Positions 3,420 to 50,513 of a DNA stretch of 64,000 nt are shown in pieces. Made by a program: the position numbers and the translations under genes. Location: positions 3,618-67,617 of the forward strand of contig PWLI01000011.1 in assembly GCA_003559415.1 (NCBI GenBank), given 5' to 3'. Every line of letters begins with the position of its first letter. Position 1 is the stretch's first letter. The notes under the pieces were generated by a model that saw nothing but the letters and a program-made list of their open reading frames with translations, ran no database searches and was not told the DNA's origin. This DNA is from Clostridiales bacterium (GTDB lineage: Bacteria; Bacillota; Proteinivoracia; UBA4975; PWLI01).

Positions 3420-3431
3420 TTTCCATCGCTC

Positions 3432-5608
<2,177 letters not shown>

Positions 5609-5610
5609 TC

Positions 5611-6693
5611 CTAAACAAGCTCTGTTATTTGTCCTTTTCTCACTGAAAATGTTTTTTGGGGGTTGGTCTCTGACAGGGGCTCTGTAGTTGTGATTATCGC
5701 CTGAATTCCCTTGGGCAGACTGTCCATCAGCAAACGGCGCCGGACCTGGTCCAGCTCAGAAAAAACATCATCCAACAGCAGCACCGGCAGATCTCCTGTT
5801 TCAGCCAAAAACAACTCCACCTCGGCCAGTTTAACAGCCAGCACCGCTGTCCGCTGTTGACCCTGGGAACCATAGCTTCGAAGATCTTCGCTGCCCAACA
5901 AAAAGGTTATGTCATCTCTGTGGGGGCCAAAGAGAGTGGTTCGTTGAATCCTTTCCTGCTTGGAGTGCTCCCTGACTTGTGCCGCCACTCCACACTCACC
6001 ACTTTCCAAACAAAAAGAAGGTGTGTAACACAATGCCAACTCTTCTGTGCCGTCGCTGAGGCGGCGGTGCCGTAAACGGGCCAGCAGACTCAGCTTTTTT
6101 ACAAACTCCCTTCTTTTGCATGAAATGTTCATGCCAAGCTTGATAAGTTTTTCCGTAAGAACAGCCAATAACGTTCCGTCCACCGTTGAAAACTTAAGCA
6201 ATGCGTTTCTCTGCTGCAACACCCTTTTGTAGCGTTCAACGTCATTACGGTACCCGGAATCCATCTGACAAATCTCCAAATCCATAAACCGCCTTCGCCT
6301 TGCCGGGCCGCCCTTGACCAAATCCATGTCTTCAGGAACAAAAAGCACAGACCTTATGTTTCCCACAACTTCGCCAAGGCGGCTAACCAGGGCGCCATTC
6401 AGCTTGTTTACCCTGCGGTTGTCTCTGTGCAATCCCATTTCTACCCAAACAGGCTCTTCCTTTGCCCTTGTTCCCTTGCCGGAAACATAGAGATATTCAC
6501 TTTCATGGTTTATCAGTTGTTCCTGCCTGGTAATGCGGGGCGAAAATCCGGTGGACAGAAAGTATACAGACTCCAAAAGATTTGTTTTCCCCTGTCCGTT
6601 TTGCCCCACCACAACGTTGACCCCGGGGGCGGGGAAAACCTCGCCTTTTTTAAAGTTTCTCCACCCGGCAAACTTTATGGCATCTATTTTCAT
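5611..6693 (-). CDS. recF: DNA replication and repair protein RecF
   Basis: 360 aa. Has the N-terminal Walker A VVVGQNGQGKTNLLE, an SMC-like signature and the C-terminal LLLDDVFSELD Walker B. Confidence 0.95.
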   Translation of the reverse strand: MKIDAIKFAGWRNFKKGEVFPAPGVNVVVGQNGQGKTNLLESVYFLSTGFSPRITRQEQLINHESEYLYVSGKGTRAKEEPVWVEMGLHRDNRRVNKLNGALVSRLGEVVGNIRSVLFVPEDMDLVKGGPARRRRFMDLEICQMDSGYRNDVERYKRVLQQRNALLKFSTVDGTLLAVLTEKLIKLGMNISCKRREFVKKLSLLARLRHRRLSDGTEELALCYTPSFCLESGECGVAAQVREHSKQERIQRTTLFGPHRDDITFLLGSEDLRSYGSQGQQRTAVLAVKLAEVELFLAETGDLPVLLLDDVFSELDQVRRRLLMDSLPKGIQAIITTTEPLSETNPQKTFSVRKGQITELV

Positions 6694-6696
6694 AGG

Positions 6697-6927
6697 TTAC
6701 CCTTCAACATTTATTTTTAGTTCGTCTTCGCCTACAACAACCCAGTCTCCGGGATAAAGCTTTTTTCCCCGCTCGGTTGTTGGGATGCCGTTAACCAACA
6801 CCGGTGTTTGCTGCAGCAACATTTTTGCCTCTCCGCCTGTTTGTACAATGTCAGCCATCTTCAGCAGTTGTCCCAGCTTTATAAATGGTGTCTCTATCTT
6901 TATGTTCACTGGTTGCTTACCTTTCAC
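6697..6927 (-). CDS. yaaA: S4-domain RNA-binding protein YaaA
   Basis: 76 aa. IKLGQLLKMADIVQTGGEAKMLLQQTPVLVNG...GKKLYPGDWV is an S4 fold. It lies at the conserved dnaN-yaaA-recF position. Confidence 0.8.
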   Translation of the reverse strand: MKGKQPVNIKIETPFIKLGQLLKMADIVQTGGEAKMLLQQTPVLVNGIPTTERGKKLYPGDWVVVGEDELKINVEG

Positions 6928-8036
6928 TGAAGCCGCACAGGCAGAACCAGGTGGAGGCAGTTGTGATCGTTTAGGGGCGTAACGAGACAGGGGCTGTACG
7001 GGCCGGTAAAGTCCATTTTAACATGTTCAGCTCCCATGTTTTTCAGGCAGTCCAACAGCAACCTGACGTTAAAACGAATTTCCATTTCTTCTCCGCTTAT
7101 TTCTGCATCAACACTGTCTTCCAGCACACCTATGTCGGGGCTCACAGAGTTTATAGCCATCTCTCCCTGGCCCAGGGACAGTTTAACCAGGTTATTTGCA
7201 CCTTCCCGGGCAATAACTTCTGCCCTGTCCAAAGCAGATGACAACTCCTTGGTTTCCAGGGTGACTGTACTCTTAAACTCGGTTGGTATTATTTGCTGAT
7301 ATGGAGGATACTTGCCCTCAACCAGGCGGGAAGAAATCACAAGCCCACCCATTTCAAAAACAATGTCGGTTTTGTTGACAGCTACGTTTACTTTTTCATC
7401 CTTCTGGTCTCTCAGGGTTTTTATCAGCTCCTGAACAACCTTGCCGGGGACGATTGCCTTGAAATCATCTTTTATTCCTGCGTTGGCCTGGCGGAAAGCC
7501 AGCCGGTGCCCGTCTGTGGAAACCAGTTTGAGTTTTTCATCTTCGTTTTCCATCAGCAATCCTGTCAACACCCTGCGCGTTTCATCCCGGGCAATGGCCA
7601 CCTCTGTCTGCATCAACATTTCCCGAAGCAGGCTCTCTGAAACAGAAAATTCTGCTGCATCTTCGCCTGTTTCCGGAAGCCGGGGAAATTCGTCTGCTGC
7701 AAACCCTGTTATATCAAACTTTATCTTGCCGCTGGTAATGTGGACCTTCATGCCCTGTTGCTCATCGGTTTTCAGTTCAACCTGACCTGCTGGCAGTCTC
7801 CTGACAAACTCCGTCAGCAGTTTTGCCGGTAAAACAATCTCTCCCGGATCAACAACATTGGCTTTTACCAGGCAACGATTGCCAAATTCCAAATCTGTGG
7901 CCTTTAGTTCTATTTTGTCTTGTTGGGCACTGATTAGTATGCCCTTCAGTGCAGGAAGGGGTGACTTTAGAGCAACGGCGCGCTGGACCATGCTTAGGGC
8001 TGCAGAGAACACTTCTTTGTCGCAAGAAAAATTCAT
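6924..8036 (-). CDS. dnaN: DNA polymerase III beta sliding clamp
   Basis: 370 aa with a three-domain clamp pattern. Directly downstream of dnaA across a box-rich spacer. Confidence 0.95.
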   Translation of the reverse strand: MNFSCDKEVFSAALSMVQRAVALKSPLPALKGILISAQQDKIELKATDLEFGNRCLVKANVVDPGEIVLPAKLLTEFVRRLPAGQVELKTDEQQGMKVHITSGKIKFDITGFAADEFPRLPETGEDAAEFSVSESLLREMLMQTEVAIARDETRRVLTGLLMENEDEKLKLVSTDGHRLAFRQANAGIKDDFKAIVPGKVVQELIKTLRDQKDEKVNVAVNKTDIVFEMGGLVISSRLVEGKYPPYQQIIPTEFKSTVTLETKELSSALDRAEVIAREGANNLVKLSLGQGEMAINSVSPDIGVLEDSVDAEISGEEMEIRFNVRLLLDCLKNMGAEHVKMDFTGPYSPCLVTPLNDHNCLHLVLPVRLQ

Positions 8037-8202
8037 TTTAAAACCTCCTGCCAGTATATTTTATATATAAGGAAGTAGCAGTGCTAATAGGGGGTGTAGA
8101 TATGTGGGTAAGTCTGTAAAAGTTCGGACACATATGTGCTTTGCCTATGGAAAACCCTGTTGGCAGCATGTTTTGGTTTTCCACACTGTGCACATATCCA
8201 CA
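8037..8202. promoter_or_regulatory. oriC part 2 (dnaA-dnaN spacer, incC-like): DnaA boxes, trio-like repeats and an AT-rich unwinding element
   Basis: DnaA-box-like 9-mers: aTATCCACA at 8194-8202 abutting the dnaA stop, TTtTCCACA at 8176-8184, and TGTGGGTAA (rc TTACCCACA) at 8103-8111. GTAGCAGTGCTAATAG at 8074-8089 reads as 3-nt TAG/TAA-type DnaA-trios. A pure A/T tract agtatattttatatataa at 8053-8070 sits next to the dnaN start. The order boxes-trios-DUE going from dnaA toward dnaN matches B. subtilis. Confidence 0.6.
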
Positions 8203-9528
8203 TTAATTGCTGAGAAGAAGCTTCTTGATGGCCTCAACTTCCCGGTATACCTGGGGGTGGGATTGCATGTCCGAAGCAATTTTTTCCTGGGCATGCATAA
8301 CGGTGGTGTGGTCTCGGCCGCCGAATTCTTCGCCGATTTTGGGAAGAGACAGATCGGTCATTTCCCGGCACAAAAACATGGCTATCTGCCGGGGATGGGA
8401 AAGGGCTTTTGTCCTTTTTTTCGCCTGCATGTCCTCAATTCTCAAGCCAAAATAGCCAGCCACAACCCGTTGTATTTTATCGATGGTAACCGGGGCCTGG
8501 TTGGGCTCGGGTAAAATGTCTTTCAGCGCCCGCTCAATCAGATCTTCATCTATTTGTTGCTGGGTCATTCGTGAATAAGCCTTGATTCTTATAAGTGCTC
8601 CTTCCAGCTCTCGGATGTTGGTTGTGATTTTGTCTGCAATCAACATAATTGCTTCGCTGGGAATGTCTATGTTTTCAGAAGCGGCTTTTTTTCGCAGTAT
8701 TGCAGCCCGGGTTTCCAGATCGGGGGCCTGAATGTCGGTTATAAGCCCCCACTCAAACCGGGAACGCAGCCGGTCTTCCAGCGTTGGTATTTCTTTTGGT
8801 TGCCTGTCGCTGGATATTACTATTTGTTTGTTGTTTTCGTGCAAAGCATTAAATGTATGGAAAAACTCTTCCTGTGTTTGTTCTTTTCCTGCCAAAAACT
8901 GAATGTCGTCAATGAGCAAAACATCTATGTTTCTGTAGCGATTGCGGAAGTCAACGGTGCGGTTGTCTCTGATTGCATTGATAAAATCATTGGTGAATTT
9001 TTCTGTGGAAAGATATACCACCCGCAGGTCGGGGTAGTGCTTTATAACAAAATGCCCTATTGCATTTATAAGGTGTGTCTTGCCCAACCCCACTCCCCCA
9101 TAAATAAACAGTGGGTTGTAAGCTTTTGCCGGAGCCTCGGCCACTGCCAAGGCTGCGGCGTGGGCAAAACGGTTGCTGTTGCCGATAACGAAAGACTCAA
9201 AAGTATAGCGGGGGTTGAGGGATGTGGAAACGATGCTGTGATCTATGTTTGTTGGCCTTTCCGGCAGCGAAGCAGGTTCTGCCGAGCCAACGACAAATTT
9301 AACAGCAAGGTTGGCGCCGGAAATGTCTCTCAAGACATCCAGGATCAGTTGGGAATAACGGTTTTCCAGCCATTCTTTGACAAAGTCTGTTGGAACAGAA
9401 ACGGTAAGGCGGTTTTGCTGCATATCCAGCGGCTCAGTGTCTTTAAGCCAGGTTTCAAAGCTGGGCCGACTGACTTTTTGCTCCAGTTCGGCCAGTGCTT
9501 CATTCCAAATCTGATTTTTGTCCATCAT
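8203..9528 (-). CDS. dnaA: Chromosomal replication initiator DnaA
   Basis: 441 aa. AAA+ Walker [11 protein letters not shown], the sensor motifs, and a C-terminal HTH box-binding domain (...DHTTVMHA...). Confidence 0.97.
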
Positions 9529-38525: not shown

Positions 38526-38693
38526 ATGTACGTAGTCTGTGAAAGGCATCTGGAAAAAGCCATTGATGAATTTGTGGAAACATATGAGATGCCCCCCGAC
38601 ATCTACCTTTTGGACCAGGTGTCTTTTACCAGTTGGGCTGCCCCTGCCGAATGTGATTTTTGCACAACCCATCCGGTCTACCTGGTGGTCTAG
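38526..38693 (+). CDS. CxxH/CxxC small protein (BA_5709-like family)
   Basis: MYVVCERHLEKAIDEFVETYEMPPDIYLLDQVSFTSWAAPAECDFCTTHPVYLVV, 55 aa, not in the ORF track. CERH and CDFC motifs, RBS AGGGGAGGGG. It ends 1 nt before rlmH. Confidence 0.55.
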   Translation: MYVVCERHLEKAIDEFVETYEMPPDIYLLDQVSFTSWAAPAECDFCTTHPVYLVV

Positions 38694-39170
38694 ATGAAGA
38701 TCAACCTGTTGACGGTTGGCAAGCTCAAAGAGCCGTGGCTGAAACAGGGGGTGGAGCACTACAGCAGGCGCCTCAAACGTTGGGCCCGGGTTTCTGTCAC
38801 AGAGGTTGCGGAGCAGCCGCTGGGGGACAAGGATGTCGGGGCCCGGAGCAAGACGGTGGCCCGGGAAAGCTCCCTGGTTTTAGAGCGAATTGTGCCGGGA
38901 ACCTGCCTGATCGTTTTGGACATCTGTGGCCGGAAGATGAACTCAGAGCAGCTGGCAGGGTTTATCCAGGAGAAAAAAGTCAGCGGCTTCAGCGACTTTA
39001 CGTTTGTTATCGGCGGTTCAATGGGGCTTAACGATGAAGTCAGGGCAAAGGCAGACTTATTGCTGAGCTTTTCAGGTTTGACCTTCCCCCATCAACTTAT
39101 GCGAGTAATGCTGTTGGAACAAATATATCGTGCGCATAAAATACTGGCAGGAGAGACATATCACAAGTAA
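38694..39170 (+). CDS. rlmH: 23S rRNA (pseudouridine1915-N3)-methyltransferase RlmH
   Basis: MKINLLTVGKLKEPWLKQGVEHYSRRL... SPOUT fold, 158 aa. Confidence 0.9.
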   Translation: MKINLLTVGKLKEPWLKQGVEHYSRRLKRWARVSVTEVAEQPLGDKDVGARSKTVARESSLVLERIVPGTCLIVLDICGRKMNSEQLAGFIQEKKVSGFSDFTFVIGGSMGLNDEVRAKADLLLSFSGLTFPHQLMRVMLLEQIYRAHKILAGETYHK

Positions 39171-39192
39171 TCCCGCCGAGGGAGGAAATGCG

Positions 39193-39936
39193 GTGAAGGA
39201 CTACTACAAAGTGCTTGGAGTTGCTCCAGGCGCGCCCACAGAGGTGGTGAAGGCCGCCTACCGCGCTTTGATGAAAATTCATCACCCTGATGTGGGTGGC
39301 GACCCGCAGCGGGCCAAGGAAATAGAAGAAGCATTCCGTCACCTCAGTGCCCAGCCCCAGCCAAGACGGGAGACTGACAGGCAAGACACTGTCGAGCCTC
39401 CCGCCCCTGTCAGAAGGCGTTCCGACGGCATAGTGGTAGCGGGCAAGTACATCGAAATTGCGGTGTTTGAGCTGTTTGGCAACAGGGTGCTCAGCTGCCC
39501 GCGGGAGTGCACCTTTTACCGTCGAAAGTGTCGGTTTAAGCAAGTTCTGTCGGTGGAAAGTGATGACTTGTTGACCTTCAAGGCAACTACCCTGGACATT
39601 CAAGTGCGCAACCTGACCGACAACCCCCAGACTGTGGACTTTCGCCATGGCCGGGGGGTGCTGGTGGATCAGAATGGCGAGTTCTACCAGTGCCATCAAG
39701 TCTGTGCCTACCAACACCCGGCCAAATACAAAGAAGCAGTTGTAGAGCTTTTTGCAGGAACCCAGGCAAATATAATGCTTTGGTTTCAGCAACAGCCACC
39801 AGGCAGGTATGCAAGCCGCCTGGTCTACAAGCACAGGGCACTTGTGTCAGGAATGAGGGGAGATTACTGGGACCAGGAAATACTGGACGTCAACCTGACG
39901 GGCAAGGGTAAACTTTACCTCAGGGGGAAAAAGTAG
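39193..39936 (+). CDS. J-domain (DnaJ-like) protein with uncharacterised Cys-rich C-terminal domain (GTG start)
   Basis: DYYKVLGVAPGAPTEVVKAAYRALMKIHHPDVGGD is a canonical J domain with HPD. A Pro-rich linker follows, then a 170-aa region with CPRECTFYRRKC and YQCHQVC motifs and no recognisable family. Confidence 0.7.
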   Translation: MKDYYKVLGVAPGAPTEVVKAAYRALMKIHHPDVGGDPQRAKEIEEAFRHLSAQPQPRRETDRQDTVEPPAPVRRRSDGIVVAGKYIEIAVFELFGNRVLSCPRECTFYRRKCRFKQVLSVESDDLLTFKATTLDIQVRNLTDNPQTVDFRHGRGVLVDQNGEFYQCHQVCAYQHPAKYKEAVVELFAGTQANIMLWFQQQPPGRYASRLVYKHRALVSGMRGDYWDQEILDVNLTGKGKLYLRGKK

Positions 39937-39956
39937 CAGCAGACTGCTGCTTTTTC
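39935..39956 (+). terminator. Rho-independent terminator after the J-domain gene
   Basis: GCAGCA-gac-TGCTGC then TTTTTCAG. Confidence 0.5.
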
Positions 39957-39993: not shown

Positions 39994-42459
39994 ATGGACA
40001 ACTTGCAACTTGGCGACCAAGTAAAAACAAGCATCCGACAGTTGATTGCCGGGGCCGACGGCAACGAGCTGTTTTTTGTCGCCCAAGTGGAAGAAAGGCA
40101 AATAACATCAGCAGAAGTTGTTGCCCGGGGAAACAGCGTCAGCGTCCCGGCTGTGACCGAAAAACTCCGCCCTGGCATGTTGGTGTTGCACAATCATCCC
40201 AGCGGTGACCTGACGCCATCAGGCGCGGACATTACCCTGGCCAGCAGACTTGCCGCCGATGGGATTGGTTTTGCCATTACAGATAATGCAGCCAGTCAGC
40301 TGTATGTGGTGGTAGAACCTGATGGCGGCCGGGCAGCCAAGGCCGTTTCGCTGGTTGAGCTTGAAGAGGTGTTGTCTGCCGGCGGAAGCATCAGCCACCG
40401 CATGACGGGCTATGAGACCCGGCCCCAGCAGCTGGCAATGGCTGAACGGGTCAGCCATGTGTTGCACAACGGAGGACAGGGTGTTTTTGAGGCGGCCACC
40501 GGCACAGGGAAAAGCCTGGCCTACCTGGTGCCGGCGATTATCTGGGCGCTGGAAAATGACAAAAGAGTGGCGGTTTCCACCAACACCATTAATTTGCAGG
40601 AACAGTTGCTGCACAAAGATATTCCCTTGCTGGCAAGCGCCCTTTCCCGGCCCTTTAAAGCTGTGCTGGTAAAGGGAAGGGGCAACTATCTGTGTCGCCG
40701 CAAGTTGCGGGAAGTATGCCGCTCTGGTGAGGATTTGTTGGACGACGGCGACCTGGAACCGCTGCAAATGTTAATGAGCTGGGAAAAGGCAACCAGCGAC
40801 GGCAGCCTGTCAGACCTGGATTTTGCCCCCCGCTCCGAGCTGTGGGAATTGCTTTGCTCTGAAGGGGACACTTGCCTGCGCAGTGAATGCCCGATTTTCA
40901 GGGACTGCTTTTTCCACCGTGCGCGCCGGGAGGCTCTCAATGCCCAGTTGCTGGTGACCAATCATCATCTGCTCTTTGCAGACATATCCATGAGGGTTGC
41001 CGGCGGAGAGGCGGGAGTGCTGCCCCGGTACCATGCCGCGATAATTGATGAAGCCCATAACATTGAGCGGGTGGCAACAACCTGGTTTGGCGCCAGGGTT
41101 ACCCGTTTGGGCCTGCTCCGCCTGTTGGGCCGCTTGTATGGGCAGCGGGGAGCGAAGGCCAAGGGCCTGCTGTTGTTGATTGAACGAAAAATTGCTGCCA
41201 GTCAGCAGCTTTCTGAGCAAAAATCCCAGGACATAGTTTCCCGAATTCATCATGAGCTGGTTCCCCTTATCATAAATGCGGCAGCCGGTGTAAATGATTA
41301 CTTCACCCGTATGCAGGTCTATGCCGCCGATGGCCAGGATAAGAAAATCCGTTTGGACGGCAAGGATGGAGCATGGAAAGGACGGCTGGAAGAGGGCCGG
41401 GAAATGATACATCGCCTGGACTCGCTGGCCCATGGGCTGGAGGGGTTTGTCCGGCGCCTGGAACAGGCTTCTCCCGGGGGATTTGAAAACCTCTTGACCT
41501 CTGTTGTTGAGCTGATTTCGGTGTCCGGGCGCCTGCAGGGGCTGACGGACAGCCTCAGAGAGATATTCTTTGGCAATGACCAGCACGCCGTCCGCTGGCT
41601 GGAAGCATATAGCACCCGCCAGGGGCCGGCAGTAAGCTTCCATCAGGCGCCGCTTTCAGTTGACACGTTGCTGGCAGACAACATCTGGCGACGGATACCG
41701 GCAACGGTGCTTACCTCTGCCACGCTGTCGGTGGCCGGCGATTTTGGCTATCTGCGGCGGCAATTGGGCCTGTCGGAAAACATGCCGGTGGAGGAGGGAA
41801 TTTTCCCCTCCCCCTTCGACTACTCATCCCAGGTTATGGTGGGAGTGGCCACAGACATCCCCGAGCCGGAGCAGGGAGCTTATGCGAAAAAACTCGGCCC
41901 CGCCCTCCTGGCCTCTGTCCAGGCCACCAGGGGCAGGGCGCTTATACTGTTTACTTCCTATGCCATGCTGAAAAATGCCCACGGTTATTTGCGCAACAGC
42001 CTGGATGGGAAGGGCATCAGCCTGCTTTGCCAGGGCGAAGCGCCCAGAACCCAGTTGCTGGACAGGTTTCGCAAAGACACCGGCTCTGTGTTGCTGGCAA
42101 CCTCTTCCTTTTGGGAAGGCGTTGATGTGGTGGGGGAAAGTCTCAGCAGCTTGATTATAACCAGGCTGCCCTTTTCTGTGCCCGACGACCCGGTGATGGA
42201 GGCCAAGCTGGAGCGGCTGAGAGACCAGGGCCACAACCCCTTTTACGACTACCAGTTGCCCCAGGCAGTGCTCAGGTTCAAGCAGGGGTTTGGGCGGCTG
42301 ATCCGCAGCCGCAGTGACAGGGGGGTTGTACTGGTGCTGGACAGGCGGATCAGCACCCGGCGTTACGGGAAAATGTTTTTTGGCTCCCTGCCGGAATGCA
42401 CGGTTTTGGAAGATGAACTTTTGTCGATTTTGGACCTGCAGGGCAAGTTCATCGGCTGA
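39994..42459 (+). CDS. RadC-like JAB/MPN domain fused to a DinG/Rad3-family Fe-S ATP-dependent DNA helicase
   Basis: Residues 1-130 carry the JAMM motif LVLHNHPSGDLTPSGADITLASRL (HxHx7Sx2D) with RadC-like flanks. Then Walker A ATGTGKSLAYL, a four-Cys Fe-S insert (C...CLRSECPIFRDC), DEAH (IIDEAHNI), and C-terminal helicase motifs (LLATSSFWEGVDV, GRLIRSRSDRGVVLVLD). Confidence 0.8.
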   Translation: MDNLQLGDQVKTSIRQLIAGADGNELFFVAQVEERQITSAEVVARGNSVSVPAVTEKLRPGMLVLHNHPSGDLTPSGADITLASRLAADGIGFAITDNAASQLYVVVEPDGGRAAKAVSLVELEEVLSAGGSISHRMTGYETRPQQLAMAERVSHVLHNGGQGVFEAATGTGKSLAYLVPAIIWALENDKRVAVSTNTINLQEQLLHKDIPLLASALSRPFKAVLVKGRGNYLCRRKLREVCRSGEDLLDDGDLEPLQMLMSWEKATSDGSLSDLDFAPRSELWELLCSEGDTCLRSECPIFRDCFFHRARREALNAQLLVTNHHLLFADISMRVAGGEAGVLPRYHAAIIDEAHNIERVATTWFGARVTRLGLLRLLGRLYGQRGAKAKGLLLLIERKIAASQQLSEQKSQDIVSRIHHELVPLIINAAAGVNDYFTRMQVYAADGQDKKIRLDGKDGAWKGRLEEGREMIHRLDSLAHGLEGFVRRLEQASPGGFENLLTSVVELISVSGRLQGLTDSLREIFFGNDQHAVRWLEAYSTRQGPAVSFHQAPLSVDTLLADNIWRRIPATVLTSATLSVAGDFGYLRRQLGLSENMPVEEGIFPSPFDYSSQVMVGVATDIPEPEQGAYAKKLGPALLASVQATRGRALILFTSYAMLKNAHGYLRNSLDGKGISLLCQGEAPRTQLLDRFRKDTGSVLLATSSFWEGVDVVGESLSSLIITRLPFSVPDDPVMEAKLERLRDQGHNPFYDYQLPQAVLRFKQGFGRLIRSRSDRGVVLVLDRRISTRRYGKMFFGSLPECTVLEDELLSILDLQGKFIG

Positions 42460-42611
42460 CCGGTTCTTTGTTTAGCCTCTGTGTGCTATACTCGATATGG
42501 CTCCGTTTTTGCCGGACAGTCGGCAAGCAATCACAGCACAGGGCTGTTTTTATCGCCCATGATGCCCGATTATGAGCGGCAAGGCAAAATATTTTGCAAG
42601 GGGTTGGGCCG

Positions 42612-43973
42612 ATGAACAGCGACATAACCCACAATCTTTTGGAAGTGATTATCAGCCAAAGTGATCTGGCCATCCATGTGGTGGACAGGGATGGGGTTAC
42701 AACAATCTACAACAATGCCGCGGAAGCCATGGATGGCCTGTCCCGGCAAGATGTTTTGCACCGCCATATTCTCCAGGTGTTTCCGTCGCTGAACAGGGAC
42801 ACCAGCACCTTGCTTCGGGTGCTGGCCAGCGGCCAGCCAATCTACAACCAGCAGCAAACATACACAAACCTGCATGGCAAGAGCATTGCCACCGTCAACA
42901 CCACCCTGCCAATCACGGGACAGGACGGCGAAAGGGTGGGGGCGGTGGAAATGGCCAGGGACGTTTCCACCATCAAGGCGCTGTCCCAACAGGTTATCAA
43001 CTTGAGCCAGCGCCTGCAAAAACATTCTTCTGAGGCAAACGACCCCAGCTTTTACAGTTTTGATCAAATAGTTGGCAGGGATGCCCAGTTGCTGGCGGTG
43101 GTTGACAAAGCCCGCAAGGCTGCCAGAACATCCTCCCCTGTGCTCATAAGCGGCGAAACGGGTACGGGAAAGGAAATGATTGCCCAGTCAATCCACGGGT
43201 TCAGCCCCCGGGCTTCTCACCCCTTTGTTGCCCAAAACTGTGCAGCATTGCCGGAATCATTGCTGGAAGGGTTGCTTTTTGGCAGCGTCCGGGGGTCTTT
43301 TACCGGGGCCATGGACCGGCCGGGCCTGCTGGAGCTGGCCCACCAGGGGACGCTGCTTCTCGATGAAATTGGTTCTTTGCCCCCGGCGTTGCAGGCCAAA
43401 CTGTTAAGGGTGTTGGAACACGAGGAGGTAAGGCGCCTGGGCGACACCCGGGTAAGGAAGATAAGCTTCCGTTTGGTGGCGGCTACGGCGGCCGAACCAA
43501 GGGAGTGTTTGCGTCCCGATTTGTACTACCGGCTCAATGTAGTCAGCTTACACATGCCCCCGTTGCGGCAGCGGATAAGAGACATACCAATGCTTTGTGC
43601 TCACTTTCTCTCTCGCCAAAACCGGGAAATGGGCAACTCTATAACCGGAATCAGCCATGGGGCCATGGACATACTGCAAAGCTATCATTGGCCCGGCAAT
43701 GTCAGGGAGCTGGCAAACCTTTTGGAGAGCATTGGCAACTATCGGGAAAGCGGCAACATTGTTGCCACCGACCTTCCTGAGCACCTGCGGGCGGGAAGGG
43801 AAGAGTTTTCTTTGCGCAATGAACTGCAGCAACTGGAGAGAAAACACATCCTGGCAGCGATGGAGGCTGCCGGGAATAACATCTCCCGGGCGGCCCAATT
43901 GCTGAAACTGCCCCGCCAGACGCTGCAGCGGAAGTTGAAGGCCCTTGGTTGGCACACTAATTGCACAGAATAA
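42612..43973 (+). CDS. Sigma-54-dependent transcriptional activator (PAS - AAA+ - Fis-type HTH)
   Basis: PAS (HVVDRDGVTTIYNNAAEAMDGL), AAA+ with Walker A GETGTGKE and a GSFTGA variant of the GAFTGA loop, Walker B LLLDEIG, and a C-terminal HTH AAQLLKLPRQTLQRKLK. The ATG at 42612 has a better RBS than the TTG at 42594. Confidence 0.85.
   Translation: MNSDITHNLLEVIISQSDLAIHVVDRDGVTTIYNNAAEAMDGLSRQDVLHRHILQVFPSLNRDTSTLLRVLASGQPIYNQQQTYTNLHGKSIATVNTTLPITGQDGERVGAVEMARDVSTIKALSQQVINLSQRLQKHSSEANDPSFYSFDQIVGRDAQLLAVVDKARKAARTSSPVLISGETGTGKEMIAQSIHGFSPRASHPFVAQNCAALPESLLEGLLFGSVRGSFTGAMDRPGLLELAHQGTLLLDEIGSLPPALQAKLLRVLEHEEVRRLGDTRVRKISFRLVAATAAEPRECLRPDLYYRLNVVSLHMPPLRQRIRDIPMLCAHFLSRQNREMGNSITGISHGAMDILQSYHWPGNVRELANLLESIGNYRESGNIVATDLPEHLRAGREEFSLRNELQQLERKHILAAMEAAGNNISRAAQLLKLPRQTLQRKLKALGWHTNCTE
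43950..43965 (+). promoter_or_regulatory. Sigma-54 (-24/-12) promoter for the lysine-fermentation operon, embedded in the last codons of the activator gene
   Basis: TGGCAC-actaa-TTGCA is a perfect TGGCAC-N5-TTGCA. It ends 6 nt before the activator stop codon and lies about 35 nt upstream of the kdd start. Confidence 0.65.
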
Positions 43974-44000
43974 GGACAAAGGGAGTAGGGAGTGAGCAAC

Positions 44001-45047
44001 ATGAAAACCAAAGGTTGTGCATACGGCACACATCGCAGCATCGAGCCCCGGGGGTCGCTTCCCCAACCAGCATGGAAAATTGACAACACGCTGGACATTT
44101 GGAGCAATGAACTGTTGATAGATGTTGACACCCTCAACATTGATGCAGCCAGTTTCCGTCAGATTTCTGCTTCAGCCCAGGGCGATGAAGGTGAAATCGC
44201 CAATATAATAATGAAAACCGTTTCTGAACGGGGCAAGCAACACAACCCGGTGACGGGTTCCGGGGGCATGCTTGTAGGCCGGGTGGCAAAAGTCGGGAAA
44301 GACTGGCCCAACAATGTTGAACCAGACAGCCGCATGGCCACCCTTGTTTCCCTGTCTTTGACCCCCCTGGTCATTGAAGAAGTGCTTGCAGTGCGCCCCG
44401 ATACCTGTCAGGTAGACGTGCGGGGCAAGGCTGTTTTGTTTGAAAGCGGCATATATGCCCTGTTGCCCCAGGACATGCCGGAAAAAATGGCGCTGGCTGT
44501 GTTGGATGTTGCCGGTGCCCCCGCCCAAACTGCCCGCCTGGCCCGTTCCGGTCAGACGGTGGTTGTTATTGGAGCCGGCGGAAAGTCTGGGTTGCTCTGT
44601 CTCTTCCAGGCCCGGCAAAAGGCAGGGGATCAGGGCCGGGTGCTGGCCCTGGAGTTTTCCCAGGCAGGCGTGGAGCGAATTGAGGAAACGGGTTATGCCG
44701 ATGAGATCATTGTCGCTGATGCCACCAACCCCACAGATGTTTTGGACAAGGTAAGTGCCGTCACAGATGGAGCACTGGCAGACCTGACCATAAACTGTGT
44801 GGACATCCCGGGAACGGAGATGTCGTCAATTCTTTCCACCAAGAATGGAGGGACCGTCTATTTTTTCAGCATGGCCACCAGCTTTACTGCCGCGGCGCTG
44901 GGTGCAGAAGGAGTAGGCAAGGACGTGACCATGATAATTGGCAATGGCTACACTCGGGGACATGCTGATATGGCCCTGGAATGCATGCGCCAGCAACCCC
45001 GGTTGAAAGAGATTTTTTCCCGGGCTTACGTTGAAAAGGAGGACTAG
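44001..45047 (+). CDS. kdd: L-erythro-3,5-diaminohexanoate dehydrogenase
   Basis: MKTKGCAYGTHRSIEPRGSLPQPAWKIDN... is the conserved Kdd N-terminus, followed by a Rossmann VVVIGAGGKSG. About 350 aa. RBS TAGGGAG. The ORF track uses a GTG at 43992. Confidence 0.8.
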   Translation: MKTKGCAYGTHRSIEPRGSLPQPAWKIDNTLDIWSNELLIDVDTLNIDAASFRQISASAQGDEGEIANIIMKTVSERGKQHNPVTGSGGMLVGRVAKVGKDWPNNVEPDSRMATLVSLSLTPLVIEEVLAVRPDTCQVDVRGKAVLFESGIYALLPQDMPEKMALAVLDVAGAPAQTARLARSGQTVVVIGAGGKSGLLCLFQARQKAGDQGRVLALEFSQAGVERIEETGYADEIIVADATNPTDVLDKVSAVTDGALADLTINCVDIPGTEMSSILSTKNGGTVYFFSMATSFTAAALGAEGVGKDVTMIIGNGYTRGHADMALECMRQQPRLKEIFSRAYVEKED

Positions 45048-45049
45048 CC

Positions 45050-46288
45050 TTGGCTGATTACAAAGACATACCCCTGTTTGAATCGGTGACAAAGGAACAG
45101 TGGCAAGACTGGCATTGGCAACTGCAAAACCGCATAAGCGATGTTGCCACGCTCAAAAAGGTAATCAACCTTACCAGCCAGGAAGAAGAGGGGATTGAGC
45201 GCTGTTTGCAGTCGTTGAGAATGGCCGTTACCCCTTACTATGCCAGCCTGATGGATAGGGACGACCCCAACTGCCCCATAAGGCGGCAGGCTGTTCCTGT
45301 CAGCAATGAGTTGAACATGTCTGCTACCGATATGGACGATCCCTTGGCAGAGGATACCGACTCGCCGGTGCCCGGCCTGACCCACCGATACCCCGACAGG
45401 GTGCTGTTGCTGGTAACTGACCAGTGTTCCATGTATTGCCGCCACTGCACACGCAGAAGGATGGCGGGAGCCACCGACAAAGCCCTGCCGGGAGAGCAGG
45501 TGGATGGAGCGATAGAATATATCCGCCGCACCCCGGCCATAAGGGATGTGCTGATTTCCGGTGGCGACGGGTTGCTTATTTCAGATGCTCACCTGGAAAA
45601 AATAATCCAGAAGCTGCGCAGCATCCCCCATGTTGATGTTATTCGCATTGGCACCCGGGTGCCGGTGGTGATGCCCCAGCGCATTACCCGGGAACTGGTA
45701 ACGATGTTGCAACGCTACCACCCTGTTTGGCTGAACACCCACTTTAACCATCCCCGGGAGGTTACCCCTGAAGCCTGTAAGGCGTTGGAAATGCTGGCCA
45801 ATGCGGGCATACCCCTGGGCAACCAGTCGGTGCTGTTGCGGGGTGTAAATGACTGCGTCGGCGTGATGAAGGCGCTGGTGCACAAGCTGGTGCAAAACCG
45901 GGTGCGCCCATACTACATTTACCAGTGTGACCTCTCCCGGGGGATAGAGCATTTTCGCACACCAGTGGCCAAGGGGATTGAAATTATTGAAGGCCTGCGG
46001 GGCCACACTTCTGGCTATGCAGTGCCCACCTATGTCGTAGATGCCCCCGGCGGAGGGGGCAAAATACCGGTGATGCCCCAATACCTGATCTCTCATTCTC
46101 CCCAGAGGGTAGTGTTGCGTAACTTTGAGGGCGTCATAGCGGCTTACACCCAGCCCTCAGAATACAGCGACCCGGATTGCAGTCAGTGTGAATATTGTCA
46201 GCAATCAATTGGTGTCAGCAGTGTTTTGCAAGGCAGTCGGCCCAGCCTTGAACCGGAGGGTTTGGACCGGCAGAGACGCCGCAAATGA
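45050..46288 (+). CDS. kamA: L-lysine 2,3-aminomutase (radical SAM)
   Basis: CSMYCRHCTRRR is the CxxxCxxC cluster. PLP-binding and the C-terminal Zn-Cys motif CSQCEYC match the KamA architecture. Confidence 0.9.
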   Translation: MADYKDIPLFESVTKEQWQDWHWQLQNRISDVATLKKVINLTSQEEEGIERCLQSLRMAVTPYYASLMDRDDPNCPIRRQAVPVSNELNMSATDMDDPLAEDTDSPVPGLTHRYPDRVLLLVTDQCSMYCRHCTRRRMAGATDKALPGEQVDGAIEYIRRTPAIRDVLISGGDGLLISDAHLEKIIQKLRSIPHVDVIRIGTRVPVVMPQRITRELVTMLQRYHPVWLNTHFNHPREVTPEACKALEMLANAGIPLGNQSVLLRGVNDCVGVMKALVHKLVQNRVRPYYIYQCDLSRGIEHFRTPVAKGIEIIEGLRGHTSGYAVPTYVVDAPGGGGKIPVMPQYLISHSPQRVVLRNFEGVIAAYTQPSEYSDPDCSQCEYCQQSIGVSSVLQGSRPSLEPEGLDRQRRRK

Positions 46289-47307
46289 ACAAGTTGCTCA
46301 AGCAGGCTGTAGAGGGAGGCAGTCTGGCAGTAGTGGGCATGGCCAAAAATGCCGGCAAAACTGTGACAATAAACTATCTGTTGGCACAGGCTGCCATCCA
46401 TGGAATCCGTACGGGACTGACCTCCACCGGCCTGGATGGTGAAACAACGGACTCCCTTTACCTGCTGCCCAAACCGGAAATAACGCTGTCTGCCGGATCC
46501 CTGCTGGCCACGGCCCGGGGCAGCCTTTCCCAGGGGTCGGCTCGCCTGGAATTGTTGCGAGGCACAAGGCTGGTAAACCCTTTGGGTGAAATAGTGATTG
46601 CCCGGGTTAGACGGGAAGGAACGGTGGAAGTAAGCGGCCCGGAAACATGCAGCGACCTGGCAAAAGTTATATCCCTGATGTCCGGAGAAGTCGACTTGGT
46701 GTTGGTGGATGGCGCCCTGGACAGGGTGGCGGCATCTGCTCCTTCAGTCACTGGTGGCGCAGTGCTGGCTACCGGTGCAGTGGTGGCTGGCAACGTGGAA
46801 GGCGTGGTGCGGGAAACTGTTTACCAGGCAAGGTTGCTGATGCTTCCCCCTTGCCGCAGTTTAAACGTGGACGAAAAAAATCTCATTGAGCAGGGCGGCA
46901 TCGCTGTTTCCAGCGCTGACGGCCTTGAAATCCTTCCATTGGAGACAGCAGTTGACGGCCCCCTGGAGATACTGGACTACCTGACGCCCCAGTGTAAACT
47001 GTTGTTGGGCGGCGCATTTACAGATGAACTGGCCCAGTTGCTGTTGGGGGCCTCCCGGCGCCTGGGAGAACTGTCAGTGGTGGTGAGGGATGGAACCAGG
47101 GTTTTTGTCGGCTCCCGTCTCTGGCAGCAGTTGGAACGGTCCAGTGTGGATGTGTTGGTTATGGAGGCGATAAATCTGATGGCGGTGGTTGTCAACCCTG
47201 TTGATGTTCGCGGCAGACAGCTTCCGGGGGACAAGCTGATTTCGATTCTTTCTCAACTTCTGCCGGGGGTGTCCGTGTTCAACCCTCTGGCTACAGGGGG
47301 TGACTGA
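46285..47307 (+). CDS. P-loop NTPase of unknown function encoded between kamA and kamDE
   Basis: Walker A VVGMAKNAGKTVT, a hydrophobic-strand-then-Asp LVLVDGALD, and Gly/Ala-rich core strands. No confidently recognisable family. Confidence 0.55.
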   Translation: MNKLLKQAVEGGSLAVVGMAKNAGKTVTINYLLAQAAIHGIRTGLTSTGLDGETTDSLYLLPKPEITLSAGSLLATARGSLSQGSARLELLRGTRLVNPLGEIVIARVRREGTVEVSGPETCSDLAKVISLMSGEVDLVLVDGALDRVAASAPSVTGGAVLATGAVVAGNVEGVVRETVYQARLLMLPPCRSLNVDEKNLIEQGGIAVSSADGLEILPLETAVDGPLEILDYLTPQCKLLLGGAFTDELAQLLLGASRRLGELSVVVRDGTRVFVGSRLWQQLERSSVDVLVMEAINLMAVVVNPVDVRGRQLPGDKLISILSQLLPGVSVFNPLATGGD

Positions 47308-48955
47308 AATAGAAAGGTTTATTGGCAAACCATGCCAACAGCAAATTGGACTTGAATGGGTGCTGGAGCACTTGACCCCCTTAAGTTGCTACGGCCGCCT
47401 GCGGCAGGAGAGAATGCCGGTTTATTTGCCTGGGTGTGAGCACCAACTGACCAGGGAGTGGGAGCGGATTGGCAGCCTGCTGGACGTCTGGCAATCTTAT
47501 CCCGAAAAGGTCCAGGCTGTTGAGGCGGAAATACATGGCCTCAGGGACATACGCGGTATAGTTCGCAAGGCCTGTGCTCATCTGACCCTGGAAGAACATG
47601 AGCTCTTTGACCTTAAGCAATGGTTGCAGCAGGTTGACCGCCTTTCTCAGACCCTTGTTACTTTGCCTTCTTTTTTGCCCCGACGTTTTTCGCTGTACTG
47701 CTGCCCCCGTTTGTTGGCATCCTTGAGCATGGAGGGTGACAGCGGATTCTATCTGGCAGACTGCTATGACCCCAAACTTGCCAGCCTGCGGCAATTGCAG
47801 CGGCAAAAGTTTTCTGTGCTGTCGGAAATAAAAGAAAAGCGGCAGGCTTGCATTACCCGGGAAACGGGCCTGGAGTTCAATTACCAGGGCTGTCTCCGGG
47901 TGGGCAAACATCAAACAGAATTACTGGACAAGTTGCATAATCGCAGCGACCTTCTGACAGTTGCAGAAACATATACTGAAGTGGAATTTACCCTGCGTAA
48001 AACTGCAGAAATGTTGGAGCTGTCCCGCCAGATAGCGGATCTTGAACAGGAAATCCAACAGCAGGAATATATAATCCGTCAGGTGTTGACAGAGCAAGTT
48101 GCCCGGCACAGCCGTTGGCTGCTGGCGTCGTGCAATCGTATCGGTGCCATTGATTTGCTCTTTGCCAAGGGGCGCCTGGCCCGGGAACTGGGCGGTTGCG
48201 TGCCCACCCTTGTTTCTGAAAACAAGTTGCAGATTTCAGCACTGGTTCACCCCCTTGTTGAAAACCAGCTTGCCAGCCAGGGATTGGTGTTCCAGCCATT
48301 GGACATTAATGTTGTTGGCAAAAGAGTTACCCTGATTACCGGGGCCAACATGGGCGGCAAGTCGGTGGCCCTCAAATCAATTGGGTTGGCGGTGGCCATG
48401 GCCCAAAGGGGCTTGTTGGTCCCTGCCCGCCGGATGGAGTTTTCGTTGCGCAGCTTTGTGTATTACTCTCAACAGGAAGAAAACCCGCGGCAGGGCCTCA
48501 GCACCTTCGGCGCAGAAATACACAGCCTCGCCCAGATGTTGCCCCGCCACCACCAGCCCGGCTTGTACCTGCTGGATGAGCCCGCCAGGGGCACCAACCC
48601 CCATGAGGGAGCAGGATTGGTGGCAGGGATAATTAACTGGCTGGTCTCGGGAAACAGCCTGGCAATTATCGCCACCCACCTGTCCGGCCTGACTGAGGGT
48701 GCAGCTGTGGATCACCTGCAGGTTGCCGGGTTGAGCAATGTTGAACCGGATCAGTTAAACCAGGCCCTGGCCGGGGGGAGAAAGTCTTTGCAACAGCTGA
48801 TGGACTACACCCTGGTCCCCTCTGGCGGGGATGTTCCCCGGGATGCTCTCAAGGTGGCTGCTTTTTTGGGGCTGGACCGGGAGATAATAAACTATGCACA
48901 TCGTAAATTGGGATTACCAGCTCAGGAGGTGGTTGACGATGAAATTGAATCTTGA
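47300..48955 (+). CDS. MutS-domain-V-like ATPase (MutS paralog without a mismatch-binding domain) in the kam cluster
   Basis: The C-terminal half has the MutS ABC-ATPase motifs ITGANMGGKSVALKSIG, ...STFGAEIHSLAQML..., LYLLDEPARGTNPHEG, and ATHL. The N-terminal half is helical and not MutS I-IV-like. Confidence 0.7.
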   Translation: MTEIERFIGKPCQQQIGLEWVLEHLTPLSCYGRLRQERMPVYLPGCEHQLTREWERIGSLLDVWQSYPEKVQAVEAEIHGLRDIRGIVRKACAHLTLEEHELFDLKQWLQQVDRLSQTLVTLPSFLPRRFSLYCCPRLLASLSMEGDSGFYLADCYDPKLASLRQLQRQKFSVLSEIKEKRQACITRETGLEFNYQGCLRVGKHQTELLDKLHNRSDLLTVAETYTEVEFTLRKTAEMLELSRQIADLEQEIQQQEYIIRQVLTEQVARHSRWLLASCNRIGAIDLLFAKGRLARELGGCVPTLVSENKLQISALVHPLVENQLASQGLVFQPLDINVVGKRVTLITGANMGGKSVALKSIGLAVAMAQRGLLVPARRMEFSLRSFVYYSQQEENPRQGLSTFGAEIHSLAQMLPRHHQPGLYLLDEPARGTNPHEGAGLVAGIINWLVSGNSLAIIATHLSGLTEGAAVDHLQVAGLSNVEPDQLNQALAGGRKSLQQLMDYTLVPSGGDVPRDALKVAAFLGLDREIINYAHRKLGLPAQEVVDDEIES

Positions 48956-50513
48956 TCAGGCAGTGATCAACCGCTGCCGCCAGGCCGCCGGTCACATCGC
49001 GGGCGATGTTGACCAATTTATCCGGCAAAGAACGACGGTATCTTTGGAACGTGCGGTGTTGAGGCTTATGGGCATAAACGATGCCATGGATGACGTTCCG
49101 GTGGCCAACCTTTTTGTTGAGACCATCCAGGCCGGGCAGGGCCTGGGCAGGGGGGCGGCCTATTGGTTGGCCAATGGCTGTTACCAGCTAAAACTCACTG
49201 CTGACGAAGTGGCCCAAAGAGTTGTATCGGGACAACTGGATTTGTTTCAATTGCCCCAGGCTGACCGGGCCACCCTCAATCCAACGCTGGAAAAGCTGAT
49301 GCAGCCCACAATTGAAAAAATTAAAGATCAACACCGGTTCAGAAAAGACAAACTGTCAAATCTTGGCATGGGCCCTGAGCCCTTGCTGTACGTGATTGTC
49401 GCCACCGGCGATATCTACCAGGATGTGGACCAGGCAGTGGCGGCAGTGGCCCAGGGGGCCGACATCGTGGCTGTTATCCGGACAACGGGGCAGAGCCTGT
49501 TGGACTATGTGCCCCATGGCTCCACGCGGGAAGGTTTTGGCGGTACATACGCTACCCAGGAAAACTTTCGCATCATGAGGGAAGCGCTGGATGAGGCAGG
49601 GGACAAAGCCGGCCGCTATGTGATGCTGGTCAATTACAGCTCCGGCTTGTGCATGCCGGAAATAGCTGTCCTGGGCGCCTTGGAGCGGCTGGATATGATG
49701 TTGAACGATGCCCTGTACGGAATTCTTTTCCGGGACATAAATATGCAGCGCACCTTGATTGACCAACATTTCTCCCGGCAGATAATCGGATTTGCCGGAG
49801 CGATAATCAACACCGGTGAAGACAACTACCTGACAACTGCCGATGCTGTGGAAGAAGCCCATACCGTGACGGCTTCCCAGTTCATAAATGAACAACTGGC
49901 GCTGTTGGCAGGCCTGGAAGACAGGCAAATCGGTTTGGGCCACGCCTTTGAGATAGACCCGTCCATGACTGACGGCTTGTTGTTGGAAATTGCCCAGGCA
50001 CAAATGGCCCGTCAGCTTTTCCCCCGGGCACCGTTGAAATACATGCCGCCTACAAAGCACATGACTGGTGATATTTTCCAGGGACATTTGCAAAACGGCC
50101 TGTTCAACCTGACATCGGTGCTCACCGGACAGGGAGTGCACCTGTTGGGCATGGTGACCGAGGCAATCCACACACCCTATGTTCAGGACCGCTTGCTGGC
50201 ATTGCAAAATGCCCGTTATGTCATGAACAACGCCCGCAACCTGGGAGAGGAATTGTCCATACGGGATGACGGCAAAATTTCCGCCCGGGCCCGAGACGTG
50301 CTGGAGAAGGCCGCCCAGATGCTGGAAACAGTTGCTGAAATAGGTTTGTTTGCAGCCCTGGAGAGGGGCATGTTTGCAGACATTGAGCGTTCCCGTGACG
50401 GGGGCAAGGGTTTGGATGGTGTGGTGATGAAGGATGTTGATTACTGCAATCCTTTCCAGGAGCTATTGACACAACAGGCTGGAAGTTCAGGAGGTGGCAA
50501 TGATGAGAAGTAA
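48939..50513 (+). CDS. kamD: Lysine 5,6-aminomutase alpha subunit (PLP/TIM-barrel subunit)
   Basis: MKLNLDQAVINRCRQAAGHIAGDV... About 520 aa. RBS CAGGAGGTGG. The ORF-track start at 48894 lies inside the previous gene. Confidence 0.85.
   Translation: MKLNLDQAVINRCRQAAGHIAGDVDQFIRQRTTVSLERAVLRLMGINDAMDDVPVANLFVETIQAGQGLGRGAAYWLANGCYQLKLTADEVAQRVVSGQLDLFQLPQADRATLNPTLEKLMQPTIEKIKDQHRFRKDKLSNLGMGPEPLLYVIVATGDIYQDVDQAVAAVAQGADIVAVIRTTGQSLLDYVPHGSTREGFGGTYATQENFRIMREALDEAGDKAGRYVMLVNYSSGLCMPEIAVLGALERLDMMLNDALYGILFRDINMQRTLIDQHFSRQIIGFAGAIINTGEDNYLTTADAVEEAHTVTASQFINEQLALLAGLEDRQIGLGHAFEIDPSMTDGLLLEIAQAQMARQLFPRAPLKYMPPTKHMTGDIFQGHLQNGLFNLTSVLTGQGVHLLGMVTEAIHTPYVQDRLLALQNARYVMNNARNLGEELSIRDDGKISARARDVLEKAAQMLETVAEIGLFAALERGMFADIERSRDGGKGLDGVVMKDVDYCNPFQELLTQQAGSSGGGNDEK

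Follow-up and report, generated by a model that had tools for sequence, protein, structure and literature searches.

A rare J-domain protein of uncultured Bacillota joining a short J domain to a predicted beta-sandwich of unfamiliar sequence

Class C (type III) J proteins are defined by something other than the C-terminal domains of DnaJ. They set where Hsp70 acts, and very few of the bacterial ones have known clients. A census of J proteins recorded 2,712 architectures and 1,725 domains, including many clade-specific domains of unknown function (DUFs) (PMC10410713). As for DUF4352, one recent functional study assigned it the role of a scaffold for the oligomerisation of Mpr, a mycobacterial protein of phage resistance (PMC12596739). 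No paper on a J domain joined to the DUF4352 fold was found, in a search that did not cover the supplementary tables of the census. Here, we analysed a stretch of 64,000 nucleotides (nt) of a Clostridiales bacterium (assembly GCA_003559415.1, contig PWLI01000011.1), hereafter the window, in which a gene at positions 39193 to 39936 codes for a J protein with a Cys-containing C-terminal domain. Its architecture is new and very rare and combines a familiar J domain with a familiar fold in unfamiliar sequence. The gene and the parts of its product are the following.

39179–39184, plus strand: Shine-Dalgarno sequence GGGAGG, 8 nt 5' of the GTG codon, as read from the sequence
39193–39936, plus strand: whole gene for a 247-residue class C J-domain protein, with a GTG start codon at 39193 and a TAG stop codon at 39934–39936
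39193–39357, plus strand: J domain, residues 1–55, with three helices and no helix IV (Pfam DnaJ, AlphaFold2)
39283–39291, plus strand: HPD motif, H31-P32-D33, in an HPDVGG sequence invariant in 12 of 12 J-bearing homologues
39358–39438, plus strand: variable linker rich in Pro, Arg and Gln, residues 56–82, predicted to be disordered (predicted local distance difference test, pLDDT, 29–38)
39439–39897, plus strand: sequence-orphan beta-sandwich, residues 83–235, with a predicted DUF4352/MPT63-like fold
39496–39531, plus strand: first Cys cluster, C102-x3-C106-x6-C113 (CPRECTFYRRKC, residues 102–113), in the loop that follows the long second strand of the model
39691–39717, plus strand: second Cys/His cluster, C167-H168-x2-C171-x3-H175, with YQCHQVC at residues 165–171, in the loop that follows a later strand
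39898–39933, plus strand: variable basic C-terminal tail, residues 236–247, lacking in half of the homologues (pLDDT <50)

We searched for relatives in several sequence collections. Searching 5.8 billion proteins by a word index, with the C-terminal part as the query, gave six proteins, each of them J-bearing; an exhaustive HMMER scan covering 1.84 billion representatives contributed two further J-bearing proteins and a few devoid of a J domain. Full-length relatives were found in 5 of the 185,579 species-representative genomes scanned, all of them metagenome-assembled genomes (MAGs) of Bacillota. Altogether, about 12 J-bearing homologues, all from Bacillota MAGs, and about six J-less ones were collected, and the billions of proteins searched contain some 15 sequence clusters of this family. 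A profile search with a wider alignment (A3) yielded no further members, and degenerate-pattern scans of the IMG/VR viral contigs detected no relatives. The most divergent J-bearing homologue (L092) is 45% identical to the window protein, and the J-less homologues (P0023, P0025 and P0027 to P0030) share 18–30% identity with the window domain. Several candidates were discarded. Three proteins from the exhaustive search (P0022, P0024 and P0026) are long repeat or low-complexity proteins in which one strand-turn-strand motif matched repeatedly, and were not counted as homologues; four from the genome scan (L013, L019, L051 and L078), which continue past the J domain, are canonical DnaJ or unrelated J proteins.

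The open reading frame is a real gene and not a chance one, given its 12 J-bearing homologues and its low ratio of non-synonymous to synonymous substitution rates (dN/dS), which is 0.042 over the whole gene in comparison with the nearest homologue, L088. An earlier note on this DNA, made from the sequence alone, had given the same coordinates. The window protein is the same as P0001, the copy found in assembly GCA_003565975.1, the reading of the start codon aside, and the window is essentially the same as contig PXAF01000060 of that assembly. Using the pair with L088 for dN/dS and the mean over the 12 J-bearing sequences for pairwise identity, we obtained 0.035 and 82% for the J domain, 0.37 and 18% for the linker, whose length also varies among the J-bearing homologues, and 0.022 and 61% for the C-terminal domain. 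Both domains are thus under strong purifying selection and the linker is not, a pattern of two constrained domains on a free linker.

The Pfam DnaJ model (PF00226) matches residues 3–59 with 42.8 bits, for a gathering cutoff of 27.8 bits and an E-value of 5.8e-11, and the homologues score between 35 and 50 bits. The AlphaFold2 model of this region has helices at residues 4–8, 16–30 and 38–53, with the HPD motif between the second and the third. It has no helix IV, and the residues beyond 55 are disordered and Pro-rich. It superposes on the solved J domains of DNAJC27 and Tim14 over 56 residues at 1.3–1.4 Å. A hand alignment with E. coli DnaJ suggests that the stretch from HPD to helix III has about four residues fewer than in that protein. 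The description in the earlier note of a canonical J domain followed by a Pro-rich linker therefore stands for the HPD motif, the Pfam match and the linker, and needs amending for the J domain itself, which is shorter than the textbook form and has three helices. The basic residues K20, R24 and K28 of helix II are kept in the window protein; R24 and K28 do not vary among the 12 J-bearing sequences, in which position 20 is occupied by Lys or Arg. Because the HPDVGG sequence and these basic residues have been retained, we consider that this minimal J domain is likely to function with DnaK.

Conversely, the lack of helix IV and the shortened loop after HPD might betray a degenerate J domain that has no DnaK function and serves as a structural or dimerisation element, with the sandwich acting alone. 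The existence of J-less homologues, which implies that the C-terminal domain can work by itself, is in line with this idea. Nevertheless, HPD does not vary, nor do the residues on either side of it; in terms of identity, no other part of the protein is as conserved as the J domain, which also has a very low dN/dS, scores well over the Pfam cutoff and keeps the three basic residues of helix II. We rate degeneration as very improbable.

The C-terminal domain is new at the sequence level. Residues 81–247 have no match in Pfam even at E-values up to 10, and none in NCBIfam at E-values up to 1. The C-terminal region has no match in PADLOC, the PHROG matches are confined to the J domain, and searches of the PDB sequences by phmmer and by profile hmmsearch gave nothing significant for this region. 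The DUF4352 profile (PF11611) did not match the window domain or nine of its homologues at E-values up to 10. The NCBIfam models of DnaJ, CbpA, DjlA and TopJ align with only the first ~33–76 residues of the protein, with scores of at most one-tenth of their cutoffs, or about one-seventh for DjlA. Neither a transmembrane segment with a TerB domain, as in DjlA, nor a DnaJ_C or HSCB_C domain, as in CbpA and HscB respectively, was found. The hallmarks of class A DnaJ are not present either: the linker is rich in Pro, Arg and Gln, the Cys residues are arranged as CPREC-x6-C and CHQVC, and Pfam detects no DnaJ_C or DnaJ_CXXCXGXG domain. The statement in the earlier note that the C-terminal region resembles none of the C-terminal domains of DnaJ, DjlA, CbpA and HscB is therefore confirmed.

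A first AlphaFold2 run, with the full-length protein and seven close sequences, gave a poor model of the C-terminal domain (pLDDT 56). It was replaced by a run on the domain with the 14-sequence alignment A3, in which the J-less homologues are included. The predicted domain comprises ~155 residues and is an all-beta, immunoglobulin (Ig)-like sandwich. Comparisons of this model with known structures indicated the fold common to the solved DUF4352 members YcdA (4r4g, score 11.5) and YjhA (3cfu, 10.3) of Bacillus subtilis, followed by Lmo1068 (9.2), MPT63 (9.1) and a Staphylococcus aureus lipoprotein (3qfg, 8.2). By predicted fold, the domain is thus a DUF4352/MPT63-like sandwich, unlike any known J-protein client-binding domain. 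The novelty claimed for it by the earlier note holds for the sequence and not for the fold, which is common in bacteria; structure prediction, which that note had proposed as a check, indeed revealed no known client-binding domain of J proteins. The C-terminal region as a whole (residues 83–247) is basic, with an isoelectric point of 9.2 and a charge of about +7. The usual extracytoplasmic setting of DUF4352 domains does not apply here, since the protein starts with a cytosolic J domain and has no signal peptide; it has no hydrophobic segment either (maximum Kyte-Doolittle window 1.17).

Two marginal matches to this domain were set aside. The NCBIfam model TIGR00266 (AIM24-like) aligned with residues 208–245 at 19 bits, for a cutoff of 96.6 bits, which we treated as noise. 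Antibody light chains of the PDB were matched with non-significant E-values of 0.09–1.7, owing to the segment 'WFQQQPPGRYASRLVY', which resembles the 'WYQQKPG..LLIY' of framework 2 of light-chain variable (VL) domains. The likeness of residues 195–210 (MLWFQQQPPGRYASRLVY, positions 39775–39822) to VL framework 2 looks like a case of strand-turn-strand convergence in an Ig-like sandwich.

The two Cys-containing motifs quoted in the earlier note, CPRECTFYRRKC and YQCHQVC, are both present. Each of C102, C106, C113 and C171 is kept in no fewer than 90% of the members of the 14-sequence alignment, and none of them varies among the 12 J-bearing proteins. Their assignment to two loops was read from the secondary-structure string of the model. 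The first three are spaced as CPxxC-x6-C in the J-bearing proteins vs CxC-x7-8-C in the J-less branch. H175 and P176 are invariant in the J-bearing set, and C167 and H168 vary across the wider family. As the four Cys are conserved, we infer that they bind a metal, most probably zinc, in a structural Cys4 site. An unlikely refinement of this picture is that the conserved Cys residues and H175 sense the redox state or a metal, or bind an Fe-S cluster, instead of forming a passive zinc site, so that the co-chaperone could be switched by stress. The conservation of the four Cys and, in the J-bearing subfamily, the additional conservation of C167 and H175 agree with it. So do the hosts, anaerobes that ferment amino acids and have genes for lysine fermentation downstream. 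Fusions of J domains with Fe- or Fe-S-binding modules also exist, for example Dph4 and the J-ferredoxin proteins of plants and algae. However, the difference in Cys spacing between the two branches fits a tolerant structural zinc knuckle better, and no Fe-S family of Pfam or NCBIfam was matched.

We propose that the protein is a specialised class C J-domain co-chaperone of DnaK, whose metal-stabilised beta-sandwich targets a particular client, and we consider this reading reasonably probable. The J domain would dock on ATP-bound DnaK and trigger ATP hydrolysis, and the variable linker would supply reach. The basic beta-sandwich would serve as the targeting module for one particular client or cellular site, with a structural zinc ion held by the Cys4 site rigidifying the inserted loops. 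The co-chaperone role put forward in the earlier note is partly supported by these analyses.

Several points weigh against this proposal. There is no DnaK gene in the 64-kb window, which is the part of the MAG that was looked at. DUF4352-type domains are typically extracytoplasmic lipoprotein domains, and no link to chaperones is known for them. The missing helix IV and the shortened post-HPD loop also count here; some J domains of such shape do work, as in the Tim14 type, which is no guarantee in this case. Furthermore, no link between the C-terminal domain and PF11611 is apparent at the level of hidden Markov models, and the fold matches have only 11–13% sequence identity. The sequence does not decide between zinc, an Fe-S cluster and disulfides for the Cys residues. 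Lastly, the synteny around the gene is informative only within one narrow clade.

The genetic environment is that of a housekeeping region. The genes gyrA, gyrB, recF, dnaN and dnaA are on the minus strand at the start of the window (963–9528), in the canonical order of origin-proximal regions, which puts the J locus some 30 kb away from the origin region; the origin of replication itself probably falls within the gap of ~1 kb after position 9528. The J gene closes a block composed of a LysM/M23 peptidase gene followed by walR, walK, yycH, yycI, murA, walJ, htrA, yyzF and rlmH. The features next to it are listed below, together with the genes found at the corresponding place in relatives.

38694–39170, plus strand: rlmH, for a SPOUT methyltransferase (Pfam SPOUT_MTase, 2e-50), the constant upstream neighbour on the same strand
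39927–39956, no strand assigned: terminator-like hairpin with a 13-bp stem, overlapping the stop codon, with an A-tract on its 5' side and a U-tract on its 3' side (−21.2 kcal/mol, z −2.9)
39994–42459, plus strand: gene for a fusion of a RadC-like JAB domain with a DinG/YoaA-type helicase (JAB-DinG), with RadC-JAB and Helicase_C_2 matches
L001, 8755–9132, minus strand: intervening DUF1622/BON gene(s)
L008, 6747–7745, minus strand: the same
L009, 6781–7380, minus strand: the same
L012, 6734–7749, minus strand: the same
L092, 8765–9789, minus strand: the same

The nine other J-bearing loci with sufficiently long contigs all show the same upstream gene order, except that in L012 rlmH has been lost and the J gene directly follows yyzF. 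The end of rlmH and the start of the J gene are 22 nt apart in the window and 18–22 nt apart in the closest loci, and no terminator-like site is present in this gap. The J gene is probably co-transcribed with rlmH at the end of the origin-proximal block, and transcription would probably end at the hairpin. RlmH methylates 23S rRNA on assembled 70S ribosomes. One could thus envision a J protein of ribosome or rRNA maturation, co-expressed with RlmH, that holds DnaK on ribosomes or on late assembly intermediates by means of its basic sandwich. The constancy and closeness of rlmH and the positive charge of the C-terminal region speak for such a role, which we nevertheless rate as distinctly improbable. 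In L012 the J gene does without rlmH, no RNA-binding fold was detected, and the J gene may be a simple insertion at the end of an operon; in addition, rlmH occupies the same position in Bacillota generally, including in lineages devoid of the J gene.

Downstream, the JAB-DinG gene is found within 1.2 kb of the J gene in every J-bearing locus. In six of the nine relatives' loci (L001, L008, L009, L011, L012 and L092), one or two genes on the opposite strand, coding for a DUF1622 membrane protein and/or a BON-domain protein, separate the two. In the window, they are separated only by a 57-nt spacer and the DUF1622 and BON genes are absent, which suggests that the window lineage lost them by deletion. 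The adjacency noticed in the earlier note is thus real here, but it looks secondary, since opposite-strand genes intervene in most relatives. The terminator that the same note placed between the two genes is borne out as a prediction by the hairpin, which could act in both directions and may have served convergent transcription units. As the whole region is syntenic in a narrow clade, the neighbourhood says little about function.

The J protein might instead be a dedicated partner of JAB-DinG or of DNA transactions, with the sandwich binding the helicase or a repair intermediate and the J domain bringing in DnaK for remodelling. The constant proximity of JAB-DinG, the high isoelectric point of the C-terminal region and the location of two J-less homologues, P0025 and P0023, next to genes for nucleic-acid enzymes are consistent with this role. 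We find it distinctly unlikely, because of the opposite-strand genes that intervene in most relatives, the terminator-like hairpin that separates the two genes in the window and the complete synteny from walR to the penicillin-binding protein gene in the clade, by virtue of which proximity carries little information. As for the J-less contexts, there are just two or three of them, on short contigs.

Other features of this region are worth recording. The N-terminus of JAB-DinG harbours a RadC-like JAB/MPN segment (HNHPSGDLTPSGADI, residues ~61–88; Pfam RadC, 6.2e-06), located where the NCBIfam DinG models TIGR01407 and NF005569 describe a DnaQ-like exonuclease domain, and the fusion is retained in relatives. 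Between htrA and rlmH, positions 38526–38693 (plus strand) code for a YyzF-like protein of 55 residues (Pfam, 5.1e-18) that is 67–75% identical across all relatives, a high value for such a small protein. The region from 42594 to 50513 (plus strand) starts with the gene of a sigma-54-dependent PAS/AAA+ activator, followed by lysine-fermentation genes for a KDD_N-type dehydrogenase, lysine 2,3-aminomutase and the alpha subunit of D-lysine 5,6-aminomutase. A gene for a MutS_V-domain protein is embedded in this cluster, which is an odd place for a MutS domain V.

The J-less homologues belong to other types of environments, which were available for two or three loci, all of them on short contigs, with accessory or defence-island-like neighbours.

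L090, 3121–8329: context of a J-less homologue
L089, 1–1204: context of a J-less homologue
L095, 1–3926: context of a J-less homologue

The gene of P0023 is located between an NsnA/GmrSD_N-like gene, accompanied by a small partner, and a DpdB/DndB-like gene with a GIY-YIG nuclease gene. That of P0025 shares 32 nt with the 3' end of a gene for a UvrD/GajB-like helicase. A P0028-like copy adjoins the gene of a GIY-YIG-like protein and is located 3' of what we take, by eye, to be the end of an insertion-sequence transposase gene. Its neighbours include, also by eye, PIN and RelE/HigB-like toxin genes, the latter corresponding to a weak match to NsnC in PADLOC (E-value 2e-5). These contexts hint that the family of the C-terminal domain is at home in accessory, nucleic-acid-related islands. 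The Cys4 sandwich might then represent a hitherto unrecognised family of adaptor domains for DNA helicases and nucleases involved in genome conflict or repair, and the fusion to a J domain might recruit DnaK to JAB-DinG or its substrates. This scenario is very unlikely in our view; if true, it would describe a chaperone-coupled module of DNA repair or defence. We also considered a defence role of the window gene itself and hold it to be improbable, given its conserved housekeeping block, its vertical inheritance and the absence of a PADLOC match.

Returning to the proposed class C co-chaperone, identification of its client would add another dedicated DnaK pathway. It would also provide the first cytoplasmic role for the DUF4352-like fold, otherwise known from lipoproteins and mycobacterial Mpr. 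Unless the link to helicases or defence is real, the impact is limited, as the principle is established and this tiny family comes from uncultured organisms.

Compared with its J-less homologues, the window protein shares the near-invariant Cys residues, an Asp-x2-Gly turn and a PxLP-like strand. It differs from them by its J domain, by the zinc-ribbon-like segments that some of them harbour (C-terminal in P0023, N-terminal in P0029) and by its housekeeping block, in contrast with their accessory or defence-island-like contexts. Unlike the DUF4352/MPT63-like proteins, namely YcdA and YjhA, MPT63 of Mycobacterium tuberculosis and Mpr of Mycobacterium smegmatis, it is cytoplasmic and neither a lipoprotein nor secreted; a J domain is fused to its sandwich, in which a Cys4 insertion is conserved. 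Class A DnaJ proteins, composed of a J domain, a Gly/Phe-rich (G/F) region, a C-terminal domain (CTD) I with a zinc-finger-like insert and a CTD II, offer a parallel in the succession of a J domain, a flexible linker and a sandwich with a Cys-rich, probably metal-binding insertion; this parallel is an analogy only, the sandwich of the window protein being unrelated. Another close comparison is with bacterial class C J proteins such as DjlA, HscB, AtcJ and phage Rki. The targeting domain of the window protein is unrelated, in sequence and fold, to the TerB domain of DjlA, to HSCB_C and to the other partner domains listed; its J domain is of a short, three-helix form, and the protein is confined to a few uncultured lineages of Bacillota. 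Nevertheless, like these proteins, it has an N-terminal J domain with HPD, a linker and a family-specific targeting domain, with neither a G/F region nor DnaJ_C, and it would be expected to bring DnaK to a single client or location.
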